Part shown: one piece after another, positions 1 to 9,864 of the stretch
Numbering within the stretch: position 1 is the first letter of the stretch
How the letters are laid out: each line of letters starts with the position of its first letter
Virus record (IMG/VR): IMGVR_UViG_2695420817_000017
DNA from: a virus
Taxonomy: Duplodnaviria; Heunggongvirae; Uroviricota; Caudoviricetes
Strand: one strand, 5' to 3'
Length of the DNA: 9,864 nucleotides
Made by a program: the position numbers and the translations under genes
Notes under the pieces: generated by a model
Databases searched by the model: none
What the model saw: only the letters and a program-made list of their open reading frames with translations
What the model was told of the DNA's origin: nothing

Positions 1-381
1 TTACCGCCGCAGTCGTTCCGGCTTCTTCCACTGGTAAGTACTTTTCGCGCTCTCCCTCCGTTGTTGAGAACGGCGACGGTATGCCAGCAACTCAAGGACT
101 CTGGTTCGTATGTTGCGCATATCCACGCCGTTAAGCTCAATACCATCACGGCGCATCACCTCAGCAACAACACGCGCGTAATTTTCGGCTATCACGCTGT
201 CCGGCTGCGTGGCCTCCTGTTCGCCAGCCTGCTGGCTGATTCCGGTAATACTGCGGATTATCCCGAGCGCTTCGGTCTCGGTCATGGTCATGGTCATGGC
301 CTCCATAGTGATGGCGGGTCCTCCTTGTGGGGTGCCCTGCCACGGGGCGGGAGCATCGCGGAAAAAGGCTAGTTTTTGCAT
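1..381 (-). CDS. Hypothetical protein (maximal ORF 126 aa; start uncertain)
   Basis: Minus-strand ORF, ATG at 381..379, stop TAA at 3..1. No Shine-Dalgarno before the first ATG. Internal ATGs at 306 (AGGAGGA 12 nt upstream) and 291 (GGAGG 8 nt upstream) are better supported, giving 101 or 96 aa. Contains the in-frame (GGTCAT)x3 repeat encoding TMTMTM. No family recognised by eye. Confidence 0.45.
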   Translation of the reverse strand: MQKLAFFRDAPAPWQGTPQGGPAITMEAMTMTMTETEALGIIRSITGISQQAGEQEATQPDSVIAENYARVVAEVMRRDGIELNGVDMRNIRTRVLELLAYRRRSQQRRESAKSTYQWKKPERLRR

Positions 382-542
382 TTTTATTCGTCATCACCAC
401 CAATGCAATATATTGATATGACTTGATGTTTTATTTTTCGGTGTCGATTTCGATTGTTTTTTGTTCATCACTGACGCATAACGCCCACCAGCGCAACGCT
501 GAAAGCCAGTCAGTAAACTGGCTTCGGTCATTGTGCACTACG

Positions 543-1085
543 TTACTTGTCTTTATCCGGCTGAAACTTATCAGGCACATTTCCGGTAGTTTCCATCAGA
601 TAATCGGACAGCATTCGCGGGATGTTTTCATCAAGTTTTGTGCATGCGTTACAGGCTCTGACAACTTCTTTTTTCAGGCCATCCAGCATGACGGGGGTCA
701 TCTGTGGGAAGCTCCTTTGCATAGTAAGCGGGAGGCTGTCCATGATTGATGAAATCTGACTCGCCAGTTTTGAAAGCGCGTACATGCAAAACTCTGTATC
801 AATCACGTCACCGCGATCGCGCTCGTTTTTAAGTTCCTGCGCCTCCGCCTGTGCTGTCAGTAATCTGATCCTGACTCGTAAGAGTTCATCATCATCAATC
901 TCGCCTTTGTCGTTTGTAAGCTGGCTAATTGCATTGTTAACCCTATTGTCTATCACGCTGGCAACATCATAAAACGCCTCACGGCCTTTACGTTCAACGG
1001 GAGTCACTCCCCACTTGTCGAATGCTGTAGCACTTACCCGGCAGCTTTGCGCCATGGTTTTTTTGTTCATCAGGTGCGATTTCAT
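543..1085 (-). CDS. Small terminase subunit, lambda Nu1-like (TerS)
   Basis: ATG at 1085..1083 (the track ORF begins 3 nt upstream at TTG), stop TAA 545..543, 180 aa. The C-terminal two thirds (RLLTAQAEAQELKNERDRGDVIDTEFCMYALSKLASQISSIMDSLPLTMQRSFPQ...LDENIPRMLSDYL) match, from memory, lambda Nu1 (RLTRAQADAQELKNARDSAEVVETAFCTFVLSRIAGEIASILDGLPLSVQRRFPE...LDELIPGLLSEYI), which is also about 181 aa. N-terminal ~50 aa are divergent but HTH-like (MNKKTMAQSCRVSATAFDKWGV). Lies ~135 bp downstream of a cosN site, as in lambda. Confidence 0.8.
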   Translation of the reverse strand: MKSHLMNKKTMAQSCRVSATAFDKWGVTPVERKGREAFYDVASVIDNRVNNAISQLTNDKGEIDDDELLRVRIRLLTAQAEAQELKNERDRGDVIDTEFCMYALSKLASQISSIMDSLPLTMQRSFPQMTPVMLDGLKKEVVRACNACTKLDENIPRMLSDYLMETTGNVPDKFQPDKDK

Positions 1086-1089
1086 CAAT

Positions 1090-1260
1090 ATCCCAACTTG
1101 GTCAAGGTTTCAGGTTGGTGTGTTGGTGTTATCTTTCCCTTTTTATTCATGGAGATAGAGCAAACAACAAAACCACCACCACCACCCTGAAAAAGCTCAT
1201 AAATAGCGAAAAACCGCGAGGTCGCCGCCCCGTAACCTGTCGGATCGCCGGAAAGGACCC
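1090..1260 (-). other. lambda-type cos site: cosQ/cosN (about 1197..1260, 12-nt cohesive-end core at 1219..1230) plus divergent cosB-like region (1090..1196)
   Basis: Minus strand reads GGGTCCTTTCCGGCGATCCGACAGGTTACG|GGGCGGCGACCT|CGCGGTTTTTCGCTATTTATGA. From memory the lambda cos junction is ...CCGGTGATCCGACAGGTTACG|GGGCGGCGACCT|CGCGGGTTTTCGCTATTTATGAAAA..., so the 12-nt cohesive end is identical and the flanks nearly so. Similarity stops after TATTTATGA; the segment between cosN and the TerS start carries (ACC)5 and a tandem GTTGGTGT repeat instead of lambda R-sites. Confidence 0.8.
1172..1186. repeat. (ACC)5 trinucleotide tandem repeat inside the cosB-like region
   Basis: accaccaccaccacc read directly at 1172..1186, between cosN and the TerS start. 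A tandem octamer GTTGGTGT GTTGGTGT also lies at 1114..1129. Confidence 0.9.
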
Positions 1261-1286
1261 GCCAGCCAGAACGGGCCCTAATTTCA

Positions 1287-1670
1287 TCAACCAATCAGCT
1301 TATAGCGACCTTCCCGTGCATTGCGGCGTACACGCTCAATCTTGAGGCATAGCGCCGCATCTGGCTTTTTTGGGACAGATACGCGGCAATATTCAGAAGC
1401 GCGAGGGATATTATTTATCCAGTCAATTACTTCACTTAAATACCATGCCTTACGCCCCTCAGTAACCTGAACACGCTCAGGAAACTCACCACGGGCTTCA
1501 AGGTTTAACAAAGTTCGACGGCTAAGGGTGGTCAGTTCCATAACCTGGTTCATATCTACCAGGCGTTCGCTTAAGCGCATTTTGTCAGCAATAGCCTTTA
1601 ATTCCTCTACTGCTGGATCCGGATACATCATTTCGGCAATTGGCTTAAGGTCATTGTAATGATTCTGCAT
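1287..1670 (-). CDS. AlpA/excisionase-like HTH domain protein (127 aa), function unassigned
   Basis: ATG at 1670..1668 preceded by AAGGGGGAT, 4 nt after the decoration-gene stop, so probably co-transcribed. The central segment LTTLSRRTLLNLEARGEFPERVQVTEGRKAWYLSEVIDWI fits the AlpA/Xis (HTH_17/MerR-like) DNA-binding pattern. Ends ~55 bp before cosN. Confidence 0.6.
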   Translation of the reverse strand: MQNHYNDLKPIAEMMYPDPAVEELKAIADKMRLSERLVDMNQVMELTTLSRRTLLNLEARGEFPERVQVTEGRKAWYLSEVIDWINNIPRASEYCRVSVPKKPDAALCLKIERVRRNAREGRYKLIG

Positions 1671-1681
1671 TGTATCCCCCT

Positions 1682-2023
1682 TTACACACGAGCCAGCGGC
1701 TGAACAGAAATACCTGAGCCAACAAACGCGGCAACCTTTGCCGACAGTTCTTTTACAGACTCAGGCCAGTTCAGAGCATCAACATTTAAAACACCTGTCT
1801 TATAAACCTGTGCCTGTGTTTTTTTCGCTGTGTCGATTTGTACAGCGGAAACATAAACCGCTTTGCCTGCGCTCGTTCCATCCCATACCACTAGCGCACC
1901 AGTTGCATCTTCCTGCATCAGTGGCGTAAACGCAGGTATTACCCCTTTATTGGCTGAAAATATCCCCAGCGTAGTAACCAGTGCTTCAGTGCCAGACATG
2001 AGTTCAGTGTAATGAGTAGCCAT
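1682..2023 (-). CDS. Head decoration protein, lambda gpD-like
   Basis: 113 aa, ATG 2023..2021 preceded by AAGGGGGAG. AFTPLMQEDATGALVVWDGTSAGKAV...QVYKTGVLNVDALNWPE...AAFVGSGISV aligns by eye with remembered lambda gpD ([26 protein letters not shown]...TFYKSGTFRYEDVLWPE...TAFAGTAISIV). Directly downstream of the capsid gene. Confidence 0.8.
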   Translation of the reverse strand: MATHYTELMSGTEALVTTLGIFSANKGVIPAFTPLMQEDATGALVVWDGTSAGKAVYVSAVQIDTAKKTQAQVYKTGVLNVDALNWPESVKELSAKVAAFVGSGISVQPLARV

Positions 2024-2032
2024 TGCTCCCCC

Positions 2033-3079
2033 TTAGCCAATGCGAACGGTAACAAAACGATTGATGCGGGCCGGTATTGGCTGTGGTGCAGAGTGCGTTT
2101 GTACGTACTCAATAGCCGGATCACCAGGCACAATATAGTTTTTCGGTGCAAGTTCGGCTTTAGTCAGCCCCATTCGGATTAGCTCCGGATCCTGAATACC
2201 GCCATAGGCGACAATCCCCTGAAGAGCCGTATTGCCAAGCACCATCAAATCAGGATCAAGGAAATGTTTTTCAGTTCCGTCCTCGTCGGTATAACGTCCG
2301 CTGTAAACAACAATCGCAACATCGCCCATATACCCTTTAAAACTCACCGAATCACCAAGGTCTTTAAGGGCCGTTTCCAGTTCGGAATTAGAACCACGAC
2401 GGGTATCCAGAGCCTCTTTTATCGCTCTGAATGAACGGTATTTCTTCCATACATTACCGCCCATAATGATGATATTAGTGACGCCCTCACTAAATTCTGC
2501 GTAGCTCTCAATATCATCATTTGGATCAAAAGTTTCTTTATCCTTACCTGACCACTCAGCACCGCCAGACTGCGTGATAATATTTTGTGGTTTTATATTC
2601 CAGTCCAGTTCATAACGTTCAATACCATCGCCCTCAATGATATTTTTCCCCGTTGTGATTGCCTGAACAGCAAGCCATTCAATACGTGCACGTATAGCTT
2701 TAGCCTGATTTACAATCGCCTGTTTAACTTTAATATTACGCGCCCCAAAAGCATTGTATTGTTCAGGTGATACACCAGCAGGGCGCACAGCTAACTTATT
2801 TGGATCAATGCTGCTTTTCGGTTTCATATAGCCAGGGCGAATTGTTTTTGATTCGTATCCCTCATCTCGTGAAACTTTACTGCCCACCATAGGAGAGCAA
2901 AACGCCGCGATCGGGATATTTGGATCGTCGATCGTATCAAGAATAATGTCTCTCGATTCAAACATTACCGAGCGAGTGAAAAACAAACTGGTAAACAACG
3001 CATTTAATTTTTTTTGCACATCTTCAGCATTAGCCACCTGCACAAGCTGTGTAGGCGAATATAAATCAACCATACTCAT
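2033..3079 (-). CDS. Major capsid protein, lambda gpE family
   Basis: 348 aa from ATG 3079..3077 (MSMVDLY...); the track ORF extends further upstream, but homology favours the MSM start (lambda E begins MSMYTT). Long blocks match remembered lambda gpE, e.g. ITQSGGAEWSGKDKETFDPNDDIESYA...LDTRRGSNSELETALKDLG...GDVAIVVYSG...MVLGNTALQG. An alternative start lies at 3073. Confidence 0.85.
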   Translation of the reverse strand: MSMVDLYSPTQLVQVANAEDVQKKLNALFTSLFFTRSVMFESRDIILDTIDDPNIPIAAFCSPMVGSKVSRDEGYESKTIRPGYMKPKSSIDPNKLAVRPAGVSPEQYNAFGARNIKVKQAIVNQAKAIRARIEWLAVQAITTGKNIIEGDGIERYELDWNIKPQNIITQSGGAEWSGKDKETFDPNDDIESYAEFSEGVTNIIIMGGNVWKKYRSFRAIKEALDTRRGSNSELETALKDLGDSVSFKGYMGDVAIVVYSGRYTDEDGTEKHFLDPDLMVLGNTALQGIVAYGGIQDPELIRMGLTKAELAPKNYIVPGDPAIEYVQTHSAPQPIPARINRFVTVRIG

Positions 3080-3244
3080 CCTCTTTACATTCATTACAAA
3101 TAATTGTGAATATATTCTATTACCGATGTCTGCTATGCGAATACATGCAACCAAGTGCAATGTTGTATAAAATATGCCGTGACAACTTCAGTGCTGATAA
3201 TTCGTGTTAATGTATTTACTTCCTTTGGTCGGGATTTATGTAGC

Positions 3245-3284
3245 ATGCCGGAAAATCTATTTTTTTTCCGGCATCTTTTTGTTT
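3245..3284 (+). terminator. Rho-independent terminator-like hairpin, plus-strand orientation
   Basis: Inverted repeat ATGCCGGAAAA (3245..3255) / TTTTCCGGCAT (3264..3274) followed by CTTTTTGTTT on the plus strand. No T-run follows the stem on the minus strand. No plus-strand CDS ends here, so its target transcript is unknown (see findings). Confidence 0.5.
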
Positions 3285-3358
3285 GCAGAATTTAAAACGG
3301 TATATTATCGCCGTACGGATCATCATTCCCCGACTGTTGTTTTGCCCTGTTCAGTGCG

Positions 3359-3715
3359 TCAGTGGCCTGCCCCTGCTGGCCTTTTTTTGCCGCCCGGTCG
3401 CGCCGTTCGCGCACTGATTACGCTGTCTGCGATAACCTGCCAGCCCTGCCGCGTTTCGCCGTTCTGGCCTGTCCACTGGCTTACCTGCATGTTACCCGCC
3501 ACGCTCACCAGTTCGCCTTTGTGGTGTTTTGCCAGTGCGTCGGCCTGTCTGCCAAACGCCAGGACGGATAACCACATCGTCGCCGTTCCGTCATCTGCCT
3601 GGCTGCACGGAAGGGGGACCGCCATACTAGCCATCGCCATTTGTGTACCCTTGCTGATGGTCTTTAACTGCGGGTCAGCCACCAGCCGTCCGTAAGCCGC
3701 TATCTGTGCTGTCAT
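3359..3715 (-). CDS. SSB-like OB-fold protein lacking the acidic C-terminal tail (118 aa)
   Basis: ATG 3715..3713 with GGAGAG 8 nt upstream; start overlaps the stop of the upstream ORF (ATGA). YGRLVADPQLKTISKGTQMAMASMAV...WLSVLAFGRQADALAKHHKGELVSVAGNMQVSQWTGQNGETRQGWQVIADSV follows the bacterial SSB OB-fold pattern (G-L-DP..., W..V..FG..A...KG..V.V.G...W.D..G..R). C-terminus is basic (PGGKKRPAGAGH) instead of an acidic DDDIPF-type tail. Confidence 0.6.
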   Translation of the reverse strand: MTAQIAAYGRLVADPQLKTISKGTQMAMASMAVPLPCSQADDGTATMWLSVLAFGRQADALAKHHKGELVSVAGNMQVSQWTGQNGETRQGWQVIADSVISARTARPGGKKRPAGAGH

Positions 3716-3954
3716 GCTGTCTGCTCTCCGGTTTTAACGTTGATGGTTGTTACCTGTTCCGCTTCGGCAATCTCCCGTTCTGTCATCGTGGCAAAGTTTG
3801 CAGCTGCCGTTGTCATGAATGCGCTAATCAGTTCGGGATGTGCTTTCGCATATCCTTCCCCGGCGTTGCGGTCGATGATTTTTATCGCCACTCTCAGCCA
3901 GTGCTCTGTAAGGTCAATAGCGCGGTAGTGTGGTTGTTTGCGGTTTGCCTTCAT
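3712..3954 (-). CDS. Hypothetical protein (80 aa), translationally coupled to the SSB-like gene
   Basis: ATG 3954..3952, stop TGA 3714..3712 overlapping the next start. No family recognised. First gene after the iteron origin. Confidence 0.5.
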   Translation of the reverse strand: MKANRKQPHYRAIDLTEHWLRVAIKIIDRNAGEGYAKAHPELISAFMTTAAANFATMTEREIAEAEQVTTINVKTGEQTA

Positions 3955-3994
3955 AGTTCAGATCTCAATTTTTCGTATATATATACAAAACAGT

Positions 3995-4309
3995 GCGGGT
4001 TATGCGGGTTAGCGGGTTATCTTCGCTTGCTAAGTATTTTTTATTCCTTAATATCAATACATTACAAAATTAACTGTTTACTGTTTAGCCGTGGCGTAAC
4101 CCGCAAAATGCTCAAAATAACCCGCAAACGGGGTTTTTTCTGCGGGTTACGCGTGGCTGTTTGCTGTCACTTCCTGTTATTCATCTGCGGGTTATAATCG
4201 CACTTTTGCGGGTTATAACTGCCGTTTTGCGGGTTACGTGCGGGTTATTGATTTCCTTTTTATTCATGCAGTTAATGCACTTATACACAGAGTAACCCAC
4301 ATAACCCGC
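3995..4309. repeat. Iteron array (8-bp GCGGGTTA, about 13 copies in both orientations) flanking an AT-rich segment: candidate replication origin
   Basis: Direct copies at 3995, 4004, 4012, 4142, 4187, 4208, 4229, 4240; inverted copies (TAACCCGC) at 4097, 4118, 4302 and a variant TAACCCAC at 4293. AT-rich stretch 4020..4096, plus GTATATATATAC at 3974..3985. Begins 24 bp after the primase/helicase stop, the position PICI/P4-type origins occupy. Confidence 0.75.
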
Positions 4310-4332
4310 AACTTTTCACCTCACACAGGGGG

Positions 4333-6456
4333 TTAATCTTCTGCCTCAGGCTGGAACATCAGCACGTAAAAAACATGCTGCTTCCCCCCAATTTTGCCGA
4401 GAGCCTTTTTCTTGTAACGGCGATCGTTACCCGCTTCCAGCATTCCGGCAGCACTCAACGCGCGGGCAAAGTGGGACGGGTTAAATCCCTGTGCGATCTC
4501 CCCCTCAAACACATGAGGAAACGTGTAAAAACGGAACTCATCATCTTCATTTCTGATACTCCCCTTTCTGTATCCGGCAAGGTCTTTAATCGGTAAATCA
4601 CGTTCATCACTGTTTGGGTAAGGAAGGTATCGACTGAACCCGAACGACGACAAAAACGCCTCAGCCTGTTCAACCATCTGTTTAAATTCCCTGTTACCCG
4701 TGCCGAACTCCTTCACCCAGGCATTAAAGTTATGCTGTATTGCGTCCCGGCATTCCTGCGCGGCCCAGCCAGTTACATGACCGGAAAGCACAAGCGCGGC
4801 CTCCAGTATGGCGAAACGCTCACCCACGCGGTGGACTTGCTCGCCGTAGCTCTCCGGTATCAGGTTGCGCCACCGTTCGCGGCATTCCCTTACCGTATCC
4901 TTTGCCTCCTGCTGGTGGCCTGCCAGCCATTTAACCCACTCACGACCCGCTGCCCCGTGATTTTCTGTCCAGGCATCCTTTAACGCGTCTGCGTGCGCCT
5001 TTCCGGTGCTGTATTCGTGAAAGTGCGTGGCTTTTTCCATCGGAACGTTAAGCAGGCGGACAAGCTGCCCCGCTTTGACTTTTATCCCCTCCGTTTTGAG
5101 GAATGTCTCAACGTCCATTTCTCCGGTGCTGATTGCCACCGTGCGCCAGTGTTTTATCTCCCGGTTGCCGCCGTCCTTCGCCCCCTGTAATTTCCCGGAA
5201 CCGTTAAACAACGTATAGGCTGACGTGGACACCTCCCGCGCGTTTCCGGCCTGGCCTATTTCATCCAGGGGTAACAGCCCGTCGTTGTGCGCCTCTGCCT
5301 CGTTAGCGATACCTAACGCTGTGCCGTACCAGGTCAGCCGTTGTGCGTCCGGCTCTCCCCATAAACTTGATGCGATGTTCTGCGTGGTGGTTTTCCCTGC
5401 CGATGACTGTTCGAAAAGATGTACCCCAAAGCCGTCAGCACCAACAAGGCCAATCAAAGGTGCTGCCAGTGACGTGGCAACACCCAGCATCATGGACGGA
5501 TTGCCACCAGCCAGCCGCGCCACGCAGTCGCGCCAGCCCTCCGACGTACCCGCAACCGAATAGCCATTAACAGTGGCACTTTTTCCGGTAAACAGGATCG
5601 GTTTTTCAGAATCACCAATGATTGAGCCGTCCGGCATGATATACGCGCCAAAATGCCAGCCCGTTGTTGTGCTTAGCTGCCATTCCTCATGGCTTCCGCT
5701 TAACTGCATCCAGTCAGCCAGGATAGCCCTGTATTTGCCGTTTGTTGTCACGTTCAGCCCGTGATCTTTAAGCAACCGCCAGCCGTCACGGTCGCCAATG
5801 CCACCACACGGGATCGCCATTGTGATGACTTCATGGTTTGCTAATTTTTTCCAGCGCATCACGCGGTAATGCTCTTTACCGATCGTCCCCGTTCCCAGTA
5901 GTTCAAGCGGAGAACATAACCACGTCTCAGGCCGGATAATTTCGCCTGACTGCTTATCCACTTTGGGCGTTACCCAGAAAACACCATCGACGCGACTTTC
6001 AACGCGGGGCTTTAATTCATCATCCTGATAGCATGGCTCTTTTTTCTTTACAGGCAGTTCAACTACCTTTTTCTTTTCCGCCTGCTCTGCCCGTTCACGT
6101 TCCAGATATTCGCGCCAGTTCTCCCGTTTCTGGCTGTGCATTCCTTCAGGGTAATAATCAGCATCCCTGACACCTGCCGCTGCCAGTTTCTGCCCGATGG
6201 TATTAACAAGCCCCGGACGCAATAACCCCGCCTGATAGAGACGCACGCGATAGCGTCCGTCCGGTACGATTTGCAGGTTGTCCAGTTCGGCAAGTTGTTG
6301 CTCTCCAAGCCAGACAGGAGGCACGTTATCGCCAGCCAGTCGCCCGTCCTGTTCCTGCCACTGCTTCGCATGTGCCCACGCATCACTACCCGCAAAAATG
6401 ATGACTTCCGTCATTTTGTCACGCGGCTGGTGTTTTAAATTTGGCGCTTTTTTCAT
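4333..6456 (-). CDS. Primase/helicase-family replication protein (pri-rep, P4 alpha-like role), 707 aa
   Basis: ATG 6456..6454 with GGAGAGAG upstream; the track ORF starts 15 nt further up at GTG. Walker A motif FEQSSAGKTT mid-protein. Size, position after alpA and adjacency to the iteron array fit a satellite primase/helicase. Exact family not verifiable without a search. Confidence 0.85.
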   Translation of the reverse strand: MKKAPNLKHQPRDKMTEVIIFAGSDAWAHAKQWQEQDGRLAGDNVPPVWLGEQQLAELDNLQIVPDGRYRVRLYQAGLLRPGLVNTIGQKLAAAGVRDADYYPEGMHSQKRENWREYLERERAEQAEKKKVVELPVKKKEPCYQDDELKPRVESRVDGVFWVTPKVDKQSGEIIRPETWLCSPLELLGTGTIGKEHYRVMRWKKLANHEVITMAIPCGGIGDRDGWRLLKDHGLNVTTNGKYRAILADWMQLSGSHEEWQLSTTTGWHFGAYIMPDGSIIGDSEKPILFTGKSATVNGYSVAGTSEGWRDCVARLAGGNPSMMLGVATSLAAPLIGLVGADGFGVHLFEQSSAGKTTTQNIASSLWGEPDAQRLTWYGTALGIANEAEAHNDGLLPLDEIGQAGNAREVSTSAYTLFNGSGKLQGAKDGGNREIKHWRTVAISTGEMDVETFLKTEGIKVKAGQLVRLLNVPMEKATHFHEYSTGKAHADALKDAWTENHGAAGREWVKWLAGHQQEAKDTVRECRERWRNLIPESYGEQVHRVGERFAILEAALVLSGHVTGWAAQECRDAIQHNFNAWVKEFGTGNREFKQMVEQAEAFLSSFGFSRYLPYPNSDERDLPIKDLAGYRKGSIRNEDDEFRFYTFPHVFEGEIAQGFNPSHFARALSAAGMLEAGNDRRYKKKALGKIGGKQHVFYVLMFQPEAED

Positions 6457-6752
6457 TTCTGCTCTCTCCACGCGGCAATCATGTTTTTCAGTTCCTGTAG
6501 TTTTTTATCCACATTCACACGTGACACATGGTTTTTTCTGGAAAGCGGGATTTCCCGCCTGAATCTGCTAATAAAGATCTCCACGTTCAGCGAACTATGA
6601 AATGAATAGCCATCACGAATAAAATACACACGGTCAAACATCAGTTCTTTTACCGTTACTCTGTTACCGTTCTTATCCAGATAAATAGCGCCGGGGATAA
6701 TTTTGGGGTGTGCATAACCGCTGGCAGTCAAGCCAGATAAATATGTTCTCAT
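6453..6752 (-). CDS. Hypothetical basic protein (99 aa), AT-rich cassette gene 2
   Basis: ATG 6752..6750 with GGGGAT upstream; stop TGA overlaps the primase ATG (ATGA). Net charge about +9 by residue count. Visibly AT-richer than the flanking primase gene. Confidence 0.55.
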   Translation of the reverse strand: MRTYLSGLTASGYAHPKIIPGAIYLDKNGNRVTVKELMFDRVYFIRDGYSFHSSLNVEIFISRFRREIPLSRKNHVSRVNVDKKLQELKNMIAAWREQK

Positions 6753-6758
6753 GATTAT

Positions 6759-7079
6759 TTATCCCCGATTTGAATCAGTATTCGCTTTCTTTATAGCATT
6801 TAATGCATCTGTGGCATTTTCAATGGTGCACCGTAACGAAATATCAAAATGTCCAAGCATTGCCAGTAACAAACCAATATTACCCATATCAATGCGCATG
6901 GCCTTTTCGTCATAGTCCTCATTTTCTGACGCATGCCACATCAGGCTACCAATTGACGCAACAGCCATTGATATATTGTCAGTAGCCCCATCCGCAGCGG
7001 AATAAACCTTTTTAGCAATATCATGCTCACAGTTAAAATGCGGATTAATCAGGTACTGGTAATTTGACATATCAGGCAT
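6759..7079 (-). CDS. Hypothetical acidic protein (106 aa), AT-rich cassette gene 1
   Basis: ATG 7079..7077 with AGGGGG upstream, overlapping the stop of the upstream small ORF by 8 nt. Net charge about -7. Alternative start at 7070. No family recognised. Confidence 0.55.
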   Translation of the reverse strand: MPDMSNYQYLINPHFNCEHDIAKKVYSAADGATDNISMAVASIGSLMWHASENEDYDEKAMRIDMGNIGLLLAMLGHFDISLRCTIENATDALNAIKKANTDSNRG

Positions 7080-7275
7080 GGCACACCCCCTGACGAATAC
7101 GGGCAGCGAATACCATCACGCAGCCAGCCGGGGATTGCAGGCGTGCTTCCTGTTCGCTGGCGGCCTCAATGGTAATCACGCGCGGTTGTGCCGTGCTCAG
7201 GGCGATAAAACGCCAGATGTATTTATTCAGGTTGTGCGAGTCCCGCCCTTGCGGGTGTGTGGTATGATTTAACAT
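7072..7275 (-). CDS. Small protein (67 aa), possibly host cell division inhibitor Icd-like family
   Basis: Only the last 67 codons of the 304-aa track ORF are credible: ATG 7275..7273 preceded by GAGG; MLNHTTHPQGRDSHNLNKYIWRFIALSTAQPRVITIEAASEQEARLQSPAGCVMVFAARIRQGVCHA. The WRF...FAARI pattern recalls Icd-like proteins of P4-like islands; this is recollection only. First gene of the operon leading to the primase. Confidence 0.5.
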   Translation of the reverse strand: MLNHTTHPQGRDSHNLNKYIWRFIALSTAQPRVITIEAASEQEARLQSPAGCVMVFAARIRQGVCHA

Positions 7276-7372
7276 AGCTACCTCGATACGCTTTCTATCG
7301 TTGGTGGTTAGAAGCCCGGTTAGTGTTAGCGCACTGCCGGGTTTCGTCGTTTCTGCACCTTGCATCAACAAG

Positions 7373-7424
7373 GTGTTGAACACCAATTTAAGCCCTGGTG
7401 TTAAACACGTCAAGTGTTGAACAC
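7373..7424. promoter_or_regulatory. Three operator-like palindromes GTGTTRAACAC in the divergent promoter region
   Basis: GTGTTGAACAC at 7373..7383, GTGTTAAACAC at 7398..7408, GTGTTGAACAC at 7414..7424 (centre spacings 25 and 16 bp). The third overlaps a possible plus-strand -35 (TTGAAC 7419..7424, 17-nt spacer, CATACT 7442..7447) for the RHH gene. Confidence 0.6.
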
Positions 7425-7474
7425 TTATTTTTTTTCCTGCATACTGCATTTGTTTTTTGTAAGGGGTACACAAC

Positions 7475-7654
7475 ATGGCGACAAAAGCAGTAAACGCAAA
7501 ATCACAAACAGTTGCGGCAAGGGTTCCGCATGAAGTTATGAACAATGTTGAGGCGGTAAAAATGCCTGGTGAAAGTACAGGGCAGTTTGTAACAGCAGCA
7601 TTAAAGCGAGAAGTTGAATACCGCCAGCGTCGCAAGGCCAAAGAGCAGGAATAA
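7475..7654 (+). CDS. Ribbon-helix-helix (CopG/Arc-like) small DNA-binding protein, 59 aa
   Basis: Absent from the ORF track (under 60 aa). ATG 7475 with AAGGGG 8 nt upstream, stop TAA 7652..7654. MATKAVNAKSQTVAARVPHEVMNNVEAVKMPGESTGQFVTAALKREVEYRQRRKAKEQE fits strand-helix-loop-helix. Divergent from the replication operon. Confidence 0.6.
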   Translation: MATKAVNAKSQTVAARVPHEVMNNVEAVKMPGESTGQFVTAALKREVEYRQRRKAKEQE

Positions 7655-7711
7655 CCATCACCAGCGCCGTGGTGTAAGGTATTACGGCGCATTGCTATGC
7701 AGGACAACACA

Positions 7712-7885
7712 ATGACCGATAAAGAATTGACCAAAACATTATCACCGGCACGGAAAAGACGGCGCAGAAAGATAGAGCATGAATCAGAAAGATTCGCGCC
7801 ATGTGCTTTTGCCCTTGAGCAATTCCTTAAAGAGTACAGGGAAACGCGCCCATTGCAGGTATGGCAACGAACTGAACCAGACTGA
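7712..7885 (+). CDS. Hypothetical small basic protein (57 aa)
   Basis: Second ATG of the track ORF, chosen because AGGA lies 7 nt upstream (7701..7704). MTDKELTKTLSPARKRRRRKIEHESERFAPCAFALEQFLKEYRETRPLQVWQRTEPD, with an RKRRRRK basic patch. Followed by a plus-strand terminator. Coding status uncertain. Confidence 0.4.
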   Translation: MTDKELTKTLSPARKRRRRKIEHESERFAPCAFALEQFLKEYRETRPLQVWQRTEPD

Positions 7886-7949
7886 TTGCATTGCCCACCA
7901 GCCTGATAGCGGCTATCATCCCCGTGCTTATGTTTAGTGTTTTCCCATT

Positions 7950-7977
7950 GGCGACCGCCCCCGGTCGCCTTTGTTTT
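7950..7977 (+). terminator. Rho-independent terminator between convergent genes
   Basis: Stem GGCGACCG (7950..7957), loop CCCC, stem CGGTCGCC (7962..7969), then TTTGTTTT. Sits 65 bp after the small plus-strand ORF and 20 bp after the alpA stop. The minus-strand reading lacks a U-tract. Confidence 0.65.
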
Positions 7978-7996
7978 ATGTGTCATATGCTCCCCT

Positions 7997-8206
7997 TTAC
8001 ACTGCCTTACCTGAATTAATGCGATCCCGGCTTTTAACCCATTCCATAACCTCGGACAGCAGCCACCCTACAGAACGACCGCCCAGATTAAGACGTGACG
8101 GAAAGCTCCCTTTTTTCTCCAGTTCGTAGCGTGTAGTGCGACACACTCCAGTTAACTTACGACATTCATCCTCACGGATTACGCGATCTTCATTTATTTC
8201 ACGCAT
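7997..8206 (-). CDS. alpA: AlpA-family transcriptional regulator (phage/island HTH activator), 69 aa
   Basis: ATG 8206..8204; the track ORF extends to a GTG at 8293 through AT-rich, low-complexity sequence that looks like promoter DNA. ECRKLTGVCRTTRYELEKKGSFPSRLNLGGRSVGWLLSEVMEWV matches the AlpA signature (...FP.P.KLGGRSV.W...EV..W.). Classic position between int and the replication genes. Confidence 0.85.
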   Translation of the reverse strand: MREINEDRVIREDECRKLTGVCRTTRYELEKKGSFPSRLNLGGRSVGWLLSEVMEWVKSRDRINSGKAV

Positions 8207-8625: not shown

Positions 8626-9864
8626 TCAAGAATTTTGGGGGTAAATTCGCGGGGTCATAACAACGATTTTTTCATCATTGTTCTGGAGAAGCTCGAGACG
8701 GTCTACCCATAGATTAAGAGCATCACGTTTTGCATCAAGGTAGCGGGAGTGGTTATAGACTCGTTGCATCCCTGGCATCTGGTGGGCTGTAAGCTGCTCG
8801 ACAATATGCGGATCCACGCCTAAATCGTTCAGCATGGTTGTAAATGTGTGCCGGATATCGTGTAACGTCCAGGGGGCTTGATTAATTCGTCTGTGCGCTG
8901 TTCTTCCGTACTCTGCTACCGAAGATTGTCCTTTCAGTTCACCAAGCAATAAGCCTGAGTGTCTGTTCTGCTCCACCAGTTGCGTGACGAACGGCAAAAT
9001 GCTTTCCGGTATTGGCCTGAATATGGCGACCTTCGTTTTGCTGTGCTCCTTCGGTACTGTCCAGAGCATTTCTTTAAAATCCCACTCCTGCACCTCAGAG
9101 CGCCTTAGCTCAGTGGTACGGCATCCAAAAACAATCAGGAGGCGAATTAGGGCGCTGTAGTATGGCGGGAATATTTTGTCATCCAGGGCGCGGAGTAATT
9201 CCCCAAGCTCCTTATTTGTTAGTACGCGCTCGCTCACTTCTGCTTTTTTTCCCACATCACCGACAACCATATCATCAAGAACGTTGCTGATTGCGTATCG
9301 TCGTTTTCGGCAGTACTTAAGCGCCTGTTTGCATACCTGTAGCAAAAATCCGGCAGATACAGGGCTTCGCTTTGCCATCTGGTCAAAACATGCCAACCAG
9401 TGCCGTAGCTCGCATTTTTCCAACGGCAAAGCGCCAATCTGGCTGATTATGTGTTTATTGATCCGGCTTTTCAGTGATTCGTAGTCAGTGCGCTTTTCCT
9501 TTGCATACGATTCAAGCCAGTAAGTGAGCGCTTCCTTAACTGTCACGGGGGCTAACGCATCCTGTACAGCACGATTAAGCTCATAGCGCGGATTTTTCCC
9601 CTCAGCCAGCCAGGCGCGACACTGTGCTGCTTTTTCCCTGGCTGCTTTCAGGCTCAGATCGGGATAATTGCCCAGTCTCAGACGTTCCGGTGATACCTGC
9701 CTACCAGTTCCGGCCCTGTAAGTGAAATACCAGGTTAACAGGCCGCTGGTGGAATGTCTTACGCTAAGATTGCCACCGTCATTAAAAAAGGCGTTTTTTG
9801 TGGTTGGTGATCCGCTTAATTTTCGTAAAAGAGTGTCGCTAAGTCTATGAATTGCGCTGCTCAT
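8626..9864 (-). CDS. int: Tyrosine recombinase / integrase, P4-type (412 aa)
   Basis: ATG is the last three bases of the window (9864..9862), stop TGA 8628..8626. N-terminal region resembles the P4-integrase arm-binding domain. C-terminus carries the catalytic pattern HDIRHTF ... HQMPGMQRVYNHSRY (H-x-x-R and nucleophile Tyr). Whether the true start lies beyond the window cannot be excluded. Confidence 0.9.
   Translation of the reverse strand: MSSAIHRLSDTLLRKLSGSPTTKNAFFNDGGNLSVRHSTSGLLTWYFTYRAGTGRQVSPERLRLGNYPDLSLKAAREKAAQCRAWLAEGKNPRYELNRAVQDALAPVTVKEALTYWLESYAKEKRTDYESLKSRINKHIISQIGALPLEKCELRHWLACFDQMAKRSPVSAGFLLQVCKQALKYCRKRRYAISNVLDDMVVGDVGKKAEVSERVLTNKELGELLRALDDKIFPPYYSALIRLLIVFGCRTTELRRSEVQEWDFKEMLWTVPKEHSKTKVAIFRPIPESILPFVTQLVEQNRHSGLLLGELKGQSSVAEYGRTAHRRINQAPWTLHDIRHTFTTMLNDLGVDPHIVEQLTAHQMPGMQRVYNHSRYLDAKRDALNLWVDRLELLQNNDEKIVVMTPRIYPQNS

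Follow-up and report, generated by a model that had tools for sequence, protein, structure and literature searches.

What kind of element carries its own phage capsid shell, decoration protein, cos site and small terminase subunit (TerS), yet has no portal, protease or large terminase subunit (TerL)? A 9,864-nucleotide stretch of DNA from a tailed virus of the Caudoviricetes (IMG/VR record IMGVR_UViG_2695420817_000017; the window, by which we mean this whole stretch) raises this question, and a sequence-only reading had taken it for a satellite-type island with a distinct strategy for hijacking a helper phage. We find that the window very probably belongs to a classical Gram-negative phage-inducible chromosomal island (PICI) of the EcCICFT073/EcCIIHE3034 family and takes in almost the whole of its 10.7 kb, and it is syntenic gene for gene with both of these islands. 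Capsid, decoration, cos and TerS without portal, protease or TerL is the published standard layout of a PICI; it is already known and not new.

The boundaries of the element could be read from its source genome, as the window is 100% identical to positions 759912-769775 of Escherichia coli AR_0077 (NZ_CP026755.1). An 11-bp attachment (att) core, ATGATAGTTAT, is located 685 bp beyond the left end of the window, with clpS and then clpA outside it, and a second copy of the core is located 174 bp past the right end, with yljB and then cspD outside. The two cores enclose 10.7 kb, and the insertion site between cspD/yljB and clpS is a known PICI attachment site. When the outer flanks were joined through a single repeat, the reconstructed empty site was found without interruption in 5057 of the 5426 complete E. 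coli genomes (93%), with up to 100% identity. The att repeats and the intact empty site in these genomes therefore delimit a discrete 10.7-kb insertion. The window runs exactly from the stop codon of the terminal 94-aa gene to the start codon of the integrase gene, so it is a gene-to-gene cut of the island that leaves both att sites outside.

Within these boundaries, no portal, protease, scaffold, TerL, tail or lysis gene was found among the open reading frames (ORFs), the Pfam and PHROG matches or the annotation of the Prokaryotic Genome Annotation Pipeline (PGAP), both flanks included. The 685-bp stretch left of the window is free of annotated genes, and its ORFs do not exceed 82 codons. Since the element ends at the att repeat at the far side of this stretch, portal, protease and TerL are absent from the island as a whole, which bears out in the source genome what had been noted from the window alone.

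The same boundaries bear on whether the head genes are a decayed lambdoid head fragment that adjoins an unrelated int-alpA-primase element. Lambda-type homologues of E, D, cos and Nu1 do lie side by side here, as such a fragment would have them. However, one pair of 11-bp att repeats brackets the whole 10.7 kb, with the empty site present in 93% of genomes; the flanks, clpS/clpA and yljB/cspD, are devoid of phage genes; the whole unit recurs at other att sites with other integrases; and the genes are intact and under purifying selection. The order E-D-HTH-cos-TerS (HTH, helix-turn-helix) is not lambdoid either, lambdoid synteny being cos, Nu1, A, W, B, C, Nu3, D, E. We regard this explanation as practically dismissed. 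A lambdoid prophage or its remnant was rejected on the same gene order, which was confirmed on the minus strand, on the host-gene flanks and on the att repeats as bounds; a head module and other lambdoid genes were sought in the flanks and only the four host genes were found, in agreement with the earlier statement that this is not a lambdoid prophage fragment.

The components that carry the assignment to the PICIs are the following:
8626-9864, minus strand: tyrosine integrase, 412 aa (Pfam Phage_integrase and Arm-DNA-bind_3)
7997-8206, minus strand: AlpA regulator (Pfam Phage_AlpA 3e-16)
4333-6456, minus strand: DUF927 primase/helicase, pri-rep (Pfam DUF927 3.7e-47; phrog_1139, DNA primase, 6e-180)
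3990-4312, no strand assigned: replication origin with about 12 iterons TGCGGGTTA in both orientations, directly downstream of the primase gene
2033-3073, minus strand: gpE-like major capsid protein, 346 aa as annotated and 348 aa from an ATG two codons upstream
1682-2023, minus strand: gpD-like head decoration protein, 113 aa (Pfam HDPD 2.3e-15; phrog_49 1e-26)
1287-1670, minus strand: 127-aa AlpA-family HTH protein, third gene of the E-D-HTH module (Pfam Phage_AlpA 1.3e-8; phrog_2790 1e-47)
1219-1230, minus strand: cosN, GGGCGGCGACCT, an exact match to lambda that occurs once, with 0.05 occurrences expected by chance
543-1085, minus strand: Nu1-type TerS, 180 aa (Pfam Phage_Nu1 9.8e-23; phrog_57 6e-52)

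The minus strand carries every annotated gene except YlcI. At one end of the island lies the tyrosine integrase, with a specific att site and flanking direct repeat; the AlpA regulator comes after int, with genes running in one direction; and the primase-replicase is followed by the iteron origin, the layout of which agrees with that of the Gram-negative PICI origins in PMC6092414. The gpE-like homologue supplies a capsid morphogenesis component, TerS is accompanied by a cos site, and the size falls in the range of about 10-15 kb, without TerL, portal, protease, tail or lysis genes. Moreover, the five core components by which SatelliteFinder recognises a PICI, namely integrase, regulator, primase-replicase, capsid morphogenesis gene and small terminase (PMC10085698), are all present in the window in canonical order. 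The integrase, alpA, primase, capsid, decoration and TerS genes are all intact in this copy.

Two other satellite types were weighed and rejected. A capsid-forming PICI (cf-PICI) would have its own TerL, portal, maturation protease, head-tail connectors and HNH, all of which are absent from the island and its flanks. The earlier description of a PICI/P4-like satellite holds for its first half, given the int-alpA-primase-origin backbone with all five core components, and fails for its second: no Pfam or PHROG match to any P4-specific protein was obtained, and the late region consists of E, D, HTH and TerS. The P4 gene set counts Psu, Delta and Epsilon among its members. As given in the literature, it also includes the Sid capsid-size determination protein and the alpha primase. 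PICIs and P4 have few proteins in common, with AlpA and the primase among these (PMC6092414).

Given this assignment, the proposed novelty could be traced to its source. The idea of a distinct hijacking strategy rested on the mistaken premise that Gram-negative PICIs either lack capsid genes, as Rpp-type islands, or carry a full head module; the Rpp-type EcCICFT073 in fact has both c1499 and c1500, and the novelty claim therefore fails. The layout is that of EcCIIHE3034 (E. coli IHE3034, NC_017628.1 920272-930825), catalogued in Table S1 of Fillol-Salom et al. (2018; PMC6092414), a table that lists cspD-clpS PICIs with an att core identical to that of the window island. The literature reports capsid genes for 21 of the 29 Gram-negative PICIs in a reference set (PMC10111431), and both a capsid gene and TerS belong to the SatelliteFinder core (PMC10085698). 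The TerS gene type is found in 759 of the 5426 complete E. coli genomes and the window's capsid/decoration type in 395. The late module is also int-distal in islands elsewhere that have other integrases, at phoQ, in the yejO/tRNA-Pro region and inside prophage gene E, and the TerS-bearing late region likewise occurs in islands adjoining phoQ in O157:H7 and in the narP-yejO region of ATCC 25922. The finding itself re-identifies an ordinary member of a satellite family, one that has been in the catalogues since 2018 and is often met in E. coli.

Each of the late genes was what the sequence-only reading had made of it. The capsid protein matched Pfam Phage_cap_E (5e-41) and phrog_29 (major head, 7e-91), and it aligned over its full length with lambda gpE (PDB 7VI9, 4e-77, 41.8% identity). 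Its best structural match was PDB 3BQW (1e-121), annotated as a putative prophage capsid protein, which we judge from the identical alignment to be c1499 of CFT073; the capsid protein is 55% identical to c1499 of EcCICFT073. Together, 3BQW and the lambda gpE structures establish the capsid fold on sequence grounds. The decoration protein matched the phage 21 protein SHP (1TD0, 3e-16) and lambda gpD (1e-12) and is 54% identical to c1500. The HTH protein is a second AlpA paralogue, 32% identical to the island's own AlpA and matching PDB 8C3T (3e-10), and it showed no similarity to the 137-aa gene product at the equivalent position of CFT073. A disguised Rpp was rejected as its identity, as BLASTP against RppA gave no similarity and the protein is an AlpA paralogue instead.

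Strong purifying selection acts on the capsid and decoration genes. The ratio of nonsynonymous to synonymous substitution rates (dN/dS) was 0.03-0.09 for the window-type capsid, 0.13-0.18 for the CFT073-type capsid and 0.06-0.10 for the decoration gene, and E and D were intact in every island examined. Values of 0.03-0.10 for E and D mean that these genes are not decaying relics. The best match of the capsid protein in a sequenced phage reached about 42% identity at most and that of TerS 48% or less; E, D and TerS belong to old satellite-specific lineages and are not recent captures. Among the islands compared, the capsid/decoration block exists in two allelic types: in the CFT073 type, the block is preceded by a 68-aa gene and followed by a 137-aa gene, and in the window type it is followed by the AlpA-like HTH gene. 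Capsid relatives at 80-87% identity were found in Kluyvera, Superficieibacter, Cedecea and Kosakonia. At the Kluyvera georgiana locus (L011, 6001-8661), a capsid gene whose product is 87% identical is followed by a 113-aa ORF, an HTH gene (71% identical) and an exact cosN, after which comes a 199-aa ORF unrelated to TerS. This arrangement suggests another variant of the island end, or an insertion into another element.

Downstream of the E-D-HTH module, the packaging region is completed by four further features:
1231-1262, minus strand: cosQ-side flank, of which 29 of 30 bases (1231-1260) equal the last 30 of lambda
1089-1218, minus strand: island-specific cosB-side region between cosN and terS, containing GGTGGTGGTGGTGG and the inverted ACACCAACACACCAACC
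341-360, plus strand: degenerate inverted second cos (compare cos2 of EcCICFT073), the 12-mer GGGCGGGAGCAT with four mismatches to cosN
1-285, minus strand: terminal 94-aa gene, int-distal and conserved in the family (phrog_1561 2e-50; 71% identical to the last gene of EcCICFT073)

The cos site is of lambda type, as had been claimed: cosN is exact, and between -30 and +34 around the nick the sequence agrees with the lambda ends at 62 of 64 bases. This identity stops where lambda cosB begins, with complete divergence beyond. The 66-base cosQ/cosN segment (1197-1262) also gave matches of about 98% in most of 4748 matching complete E. coli genomes, often at unannotated places, which are presumably cos sites belonging to lambdoid prophages, resident or cryptic. 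All five TerS-type islands that were aligned share a conserved cosB side, which is unlike both that of the Rpp-type EcCICFT073 and lambda cosB. Within 1140-1190 on the minus strand, GGTGGTGGTGGTGG is followed about 60 bases on by a roughly inverted ACACCAACACACCAACC, both kept in all TerS-type islands aligned, and the EcCICFT073 cosB side has CACCACCACCAC in opposite orientation. These elements are candidate binding sites of TerS or Rpp, and the region 1089-1218 would be the site that TerS binds.

The TerS protein is Nu1-like from end to end, with 37% identity to lambda Nu1 over residues 6-166, 47.5% to N15 gp1 and 87% to the TerS of EcCIIHE3034, and its dN/dS was 0.10-0.27. It too was considered as a disguised Rpp and rejected, the only similarity to RppA in BLASTP being a match of 17 residues that lacked significance (E = 1.4). 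Lambda Nu1 binds DNA through its N-terminal domain and contacts gpA through its C-terminus. Across seven aligned PICI TerS proteins, the N-terminal 60 aa were 93% conserved and the C-terminal 50 aa had a mean identity of 73.5%, as would be expected of a protein whose DNA target stays the same while its TerL partner changes from helper to helper. The C-terminal ends of the seven fall into at least two types, and this variability may reflect adaptation to the large terminases of differing helpers.

Beyond terS, the earlier description of a gene of about 100 aa and not TerL proved apt: the terminal gene encodes 94 aa. Its protein had no Pfam, NCBIfam or PADLOC match, and a search for the gene in phages returned one weak match only. 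The inverted second cos, degenerate in the window, is exact in the CFT073, IHE3034 and O157 islands (loci L003 16298-16309, L004 10867-10878, L005 6788-6799 and L006 7348-7359), and cos1 and cos2 have been described in PMC6092414. With inverted cos sequences on both sides of rpp or terS, the packaging gene is bracketed, which could help the swapping of cassettes. Indeed, three packaging solutions follow the common cosQ/cosN among the islands compared: a full TerS with the conserved cosB side; RppA with a different cosB side, in EcCICFT073; and a lambda-like cosB without TerS or Rpp, in an island embedded in a prophage capsid gene (L008, NZ_CP195347.1).

For the family prototype EcCICFT073, it has been reported that the helper activates alpA and that the island excises, replicates from its own origin and is cos-packaged as phage-sized DNA (PMC6092414), and that Rpp binds the helper TerS and redirects it to the island cosB (PMC6739421). 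By experiment, helper induction, excision, replication and high-frequency transfer have been shown for EcCICFT073 only (PMC6092414). From these experiments and from lambda terminase biology, we infer the following steps for the window island. A lambdoid cos helper would switch on alpA, Int would excise the island, and the primase would replicate it from the iteron origin into concatemers. The island's Nu1-type TerS would then bind the island cosB through its conserved N-terminal domain, and its C-terminal region would recruit a gpA-type TerL of the helper, which would nick the lambda-type cosN. Such a mechanism is suggested because TerS is homologous to Nu1 over its full length, terS and the cosB side are inherited together, the N-terminus is conserved and the gene is under purifying selection. 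Procapsids made by the helper would take up the island DNA, probably as multimers of some four copies (about 43 kb), and release would depend on the tails and lysis functions of the helper. Supplying a TerS of its own would be an alternative to the Rpp strategy of EcCICFT073, and probably the simpler route.

Helper-made procapsids leave the question of what the island's own head genes do. The gpE/gpD homologues are the standard capsid component of the family, and they are selected. In EcCICFT073, deletion of c1499 or c1500 left both transfer by resident prophages and interference with lambda unchanged, all packaged DNA was phage-sized and small capsids were not seen (PMC6092414). Our search of the literature on the function of PICI E/D homologues found nothing later than these 2018 deletions.

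One reading that would give E and D a structural task is that the island is a partial capsid-forming satellite, the E and D of which build a shell, possibly a smaller one, on the portal, scaffold and protease of the helper, with TerS directing the helper TerL to fill it. Consistent with this, both E and D are intact over their full length and have dN/dS of 0.03-0.10, their lineage is distinct from every sequenced phage (at most 42% identity to lambda E), and E and D have diverged side by side between the two island types (55% and 54% identity), as for an interacting pair; a precedent, as cited in the PICI literature, is Ccm of SaPIbov5, a satellite capsid homologue that resizes helper capsids. 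We nevertheless hold this reading to be unlikely. Lambda E requires Nu3, B and C, as is established lambda biology, and the island is without scaffold, portal and protease. The c1499 and c1500 deletions were without effect and the packaged DNA was all phage-sized (PMC6092414). Even if true, the reading would hold for hundreds of catalogued PICIs and not for the window island alone. The suggestion in the sequence-only reading that this satellite supplies the shell is correspondingly doubtful for the window island, and would run against the only data at hand, the EcCICFT073 deletions.

Purifying selection on genes with no detectable part in transfer could also point to an anti-phage role, in which divergent E and D would co-assemble with the capsid proteins of lambdoid phages that are competitors or not helpers, or titrate the partners of these proteins, and so lower the yield of such phages. 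Interference of PICIs with their helpers commonly acts on the capsid and on packaging (PMC6092414, PMC6739421), and an identity of 42-43% to lambdoid E is plausible for a partial interaction. However, interference with lambda was not relieved when c1499 or c1500 was deleted, rppA alone lowered lambda plaque formation when late genes of EcCICFT073 were expressed singly, and the window proteins had no PADLOC match. We consider this role improbable.

A third reading looks to relatives of the island that lie inside the helper. L008 and L010 (NZ_AP043625.1) are located within the major capsid gene of a lambdoid prophage and are thus helper-embedded PICIs. Such islands would carry a spare E for the gene E that they interrupt, and the window island would simply have inherited the module. 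The dN between the capsid and decoration genes of the window and those of L008 and L010 was 0.006-0.016, and the idea of a backup copy has been proposed in PMC10111431. Yet the CFT073-type module occupies chromosomal sites and is also under purifying selection (dN/dS 0.13-0.18), the backing up of gene E requires no decoration gene, and the redundancy is not essential according to PMC10111431, all of which makes this legacy quite improbable. Both the anti-phage role and the helper-embedded legacy have little direct support.

We therefore keep to a classical PICI of the EcCICFT073/EcCIIHE3034 family as the identity of the island, and several points weigh against the account given here. The strong purifying selection on E and D is hard to square with the dispensability of their counterparts in the prototype. 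TerS-cosB binding and the interaction of TerS with the helper TerL are both inferences, and a literature search found no experimental work on any TerS-type E. coli PICI. The N-terminal domain of TerS had no meaningful match among solved structures in a sequence search. Finally, the single-stranded DNA-binding protein (SSB) gene is frameshifted and an Icd-like gene is a pseudogene, so this copy of the island may be partly impaired or slightly decayed.

The job of the capsid and decoration homologues in classical Gram-negative PICIs is a recognised question in the literature and not one specific to the window, and the selection measured here sharpens it. With their natural helpers, as opposed to lambda or the CFT073 prophages, TerS-type PICIs might use co-evolving E and D to build or remodel shells on the portal, scaffold and protease of the helper; this idea is improbable. 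If true, it would explain the strong selection despite dispensability in the laboratory, and it would make these islands an intermediate between capsid-stealing PICIs and cf-PICIs.

The remainder of the island comprises a regulatory region and small genes that flank the primase gene:
7656-7986, minus strand: Icd-like pseudogene (PGAP; arrangement as in CFT073)
7475-7654, plus strand: divergent YlcI/YnfO gene (PGAP; arrangement as in CFT073)
7072-7383, minus strand: Icd-like cell division inhibitor gene (PGAP; arrangement as in CFT073)
6453-6752, minus strand: DUF4222 protein, conserved upstream of pri in the family (same place in CFT073, IHE3034 and other islands)
3712-3954, minus strand: 80-aa conserved hypothetical gene (phrog_1231 3e-48)
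3292-3715, minus strand: SSB gene, frameshifted in this copy (Pfam SSB 1e-15 on a 118-aa ORF; PGAP frameshift mark)

A hypothetical gene sits between the Icd-like gene and the DUF4222 gene on the minus strand. A mechanical ORF of 304 codons (7072-7986, minus strand) covers the Icd-like gene, the antisense of YlcI and the Icd-like pseudogene, which PGAP splits into separate features. A C4 antisense RNA of the P1/P4 type had been a possible expectation for this regulatory region; an Rfam scan of the whole window, 7072-7986 included, gave no match. A scan for tRNAs found none in the window, and predicted promoters in a promoter and terminator scan of it were not above chance. PADLOC detected no defence system among ten window proteins, and the NCBIfam scan returned nothing but a far sub-threshold helicase match for the primase.

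Set beside named systems, the window island differs from the pathogenicity islands of Staphylococcus aureus (SaPIs), which are Gram-positive elements of unrelated sequence. As cited in the PICI literature, SaPI1 has a satellite TerS that redirects the helper TerL to satellite DNA, as we propose for the window TerS, and SaPIbov5 combines a capsid homologue, Ccm, with a helper-type cos. SaPI1, however, packages by a pac (headful) mechanism, and SaPIbov5 Ccm demonstrably makes small capsids, whereas none were seen for the E. coli prototype EcCICFT073. The cf-PICIs, for example EcCIEDL933, have the int-alpA-pri backbone and a satellite-encoded capsid and TerS in common with the window island; unlike it, they form small capsids of their own and also encode a portal, protease, head-tail connectors, HNH and TerL. 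In published trees, the capsid and TerS proteins of cf-PICIs separate almost perfectly from those of PICIs (PMC10085698).

In the helper-embedded PICIs of the 11capE type (PMC10111431), the E-D-HTH127 module is 93-95% identical to that of the window at the nucleotide level (L008, L010), and the replication module and overall layout are similar. These islands differ in their integrase and in their location inside the helper prophage capsid gene E. In L008 the cosB is lambda-like and both TerS and Rpp are missing, and L010 carries TerS and an abortive-infection gene.

EcCICFT073 has the same backbone and late layout as the window island, with capsid c1499, decoration c1500, a third gene, cos1, the packaging gene, the inverted cos2 and a terminal 93-aa gene, and its cosQ and cosN are also of lambda type. 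Its third gene encodes 137 aa, compared with the 127-aa HTH protein of the window. Its packaging gene, in contrast, is RppA (144 aa), which re-targets the helper TerS, is not a full TerS and has no sequence similarity to the window TerS. The cosB side is different as well, the island is integrated beside phoQ, and it carries PerC.

Of the named islands, EcCIIHE3034 is a catalogued PICI with a TerS, as in the window. It differs from the window island in having the CFT073-type capsid/decoration module (about 55% identical), a 137-aa hypothetical gene in third position rather than the AlpA-type HTH gene, an exact inverted second cos and a primase of the 'DNA primase family' rather than DUF927. 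Like the window island, it occupies the cspD-clpS site with the att core ATGATAGTTAT, and the two are of similar size (10.5 and 10.7 kb). Both have the order int, alpA, Icd/YlcI, DUF4222, pri, hypothetical, SSB, capsid, decoration, third gene, cos, 180-aa TerS and terminal gene (93 aa in EcCIIHE3034 and 94 aa in the window), and together with the 87% identical TerS, the cosB side is conserved between them.

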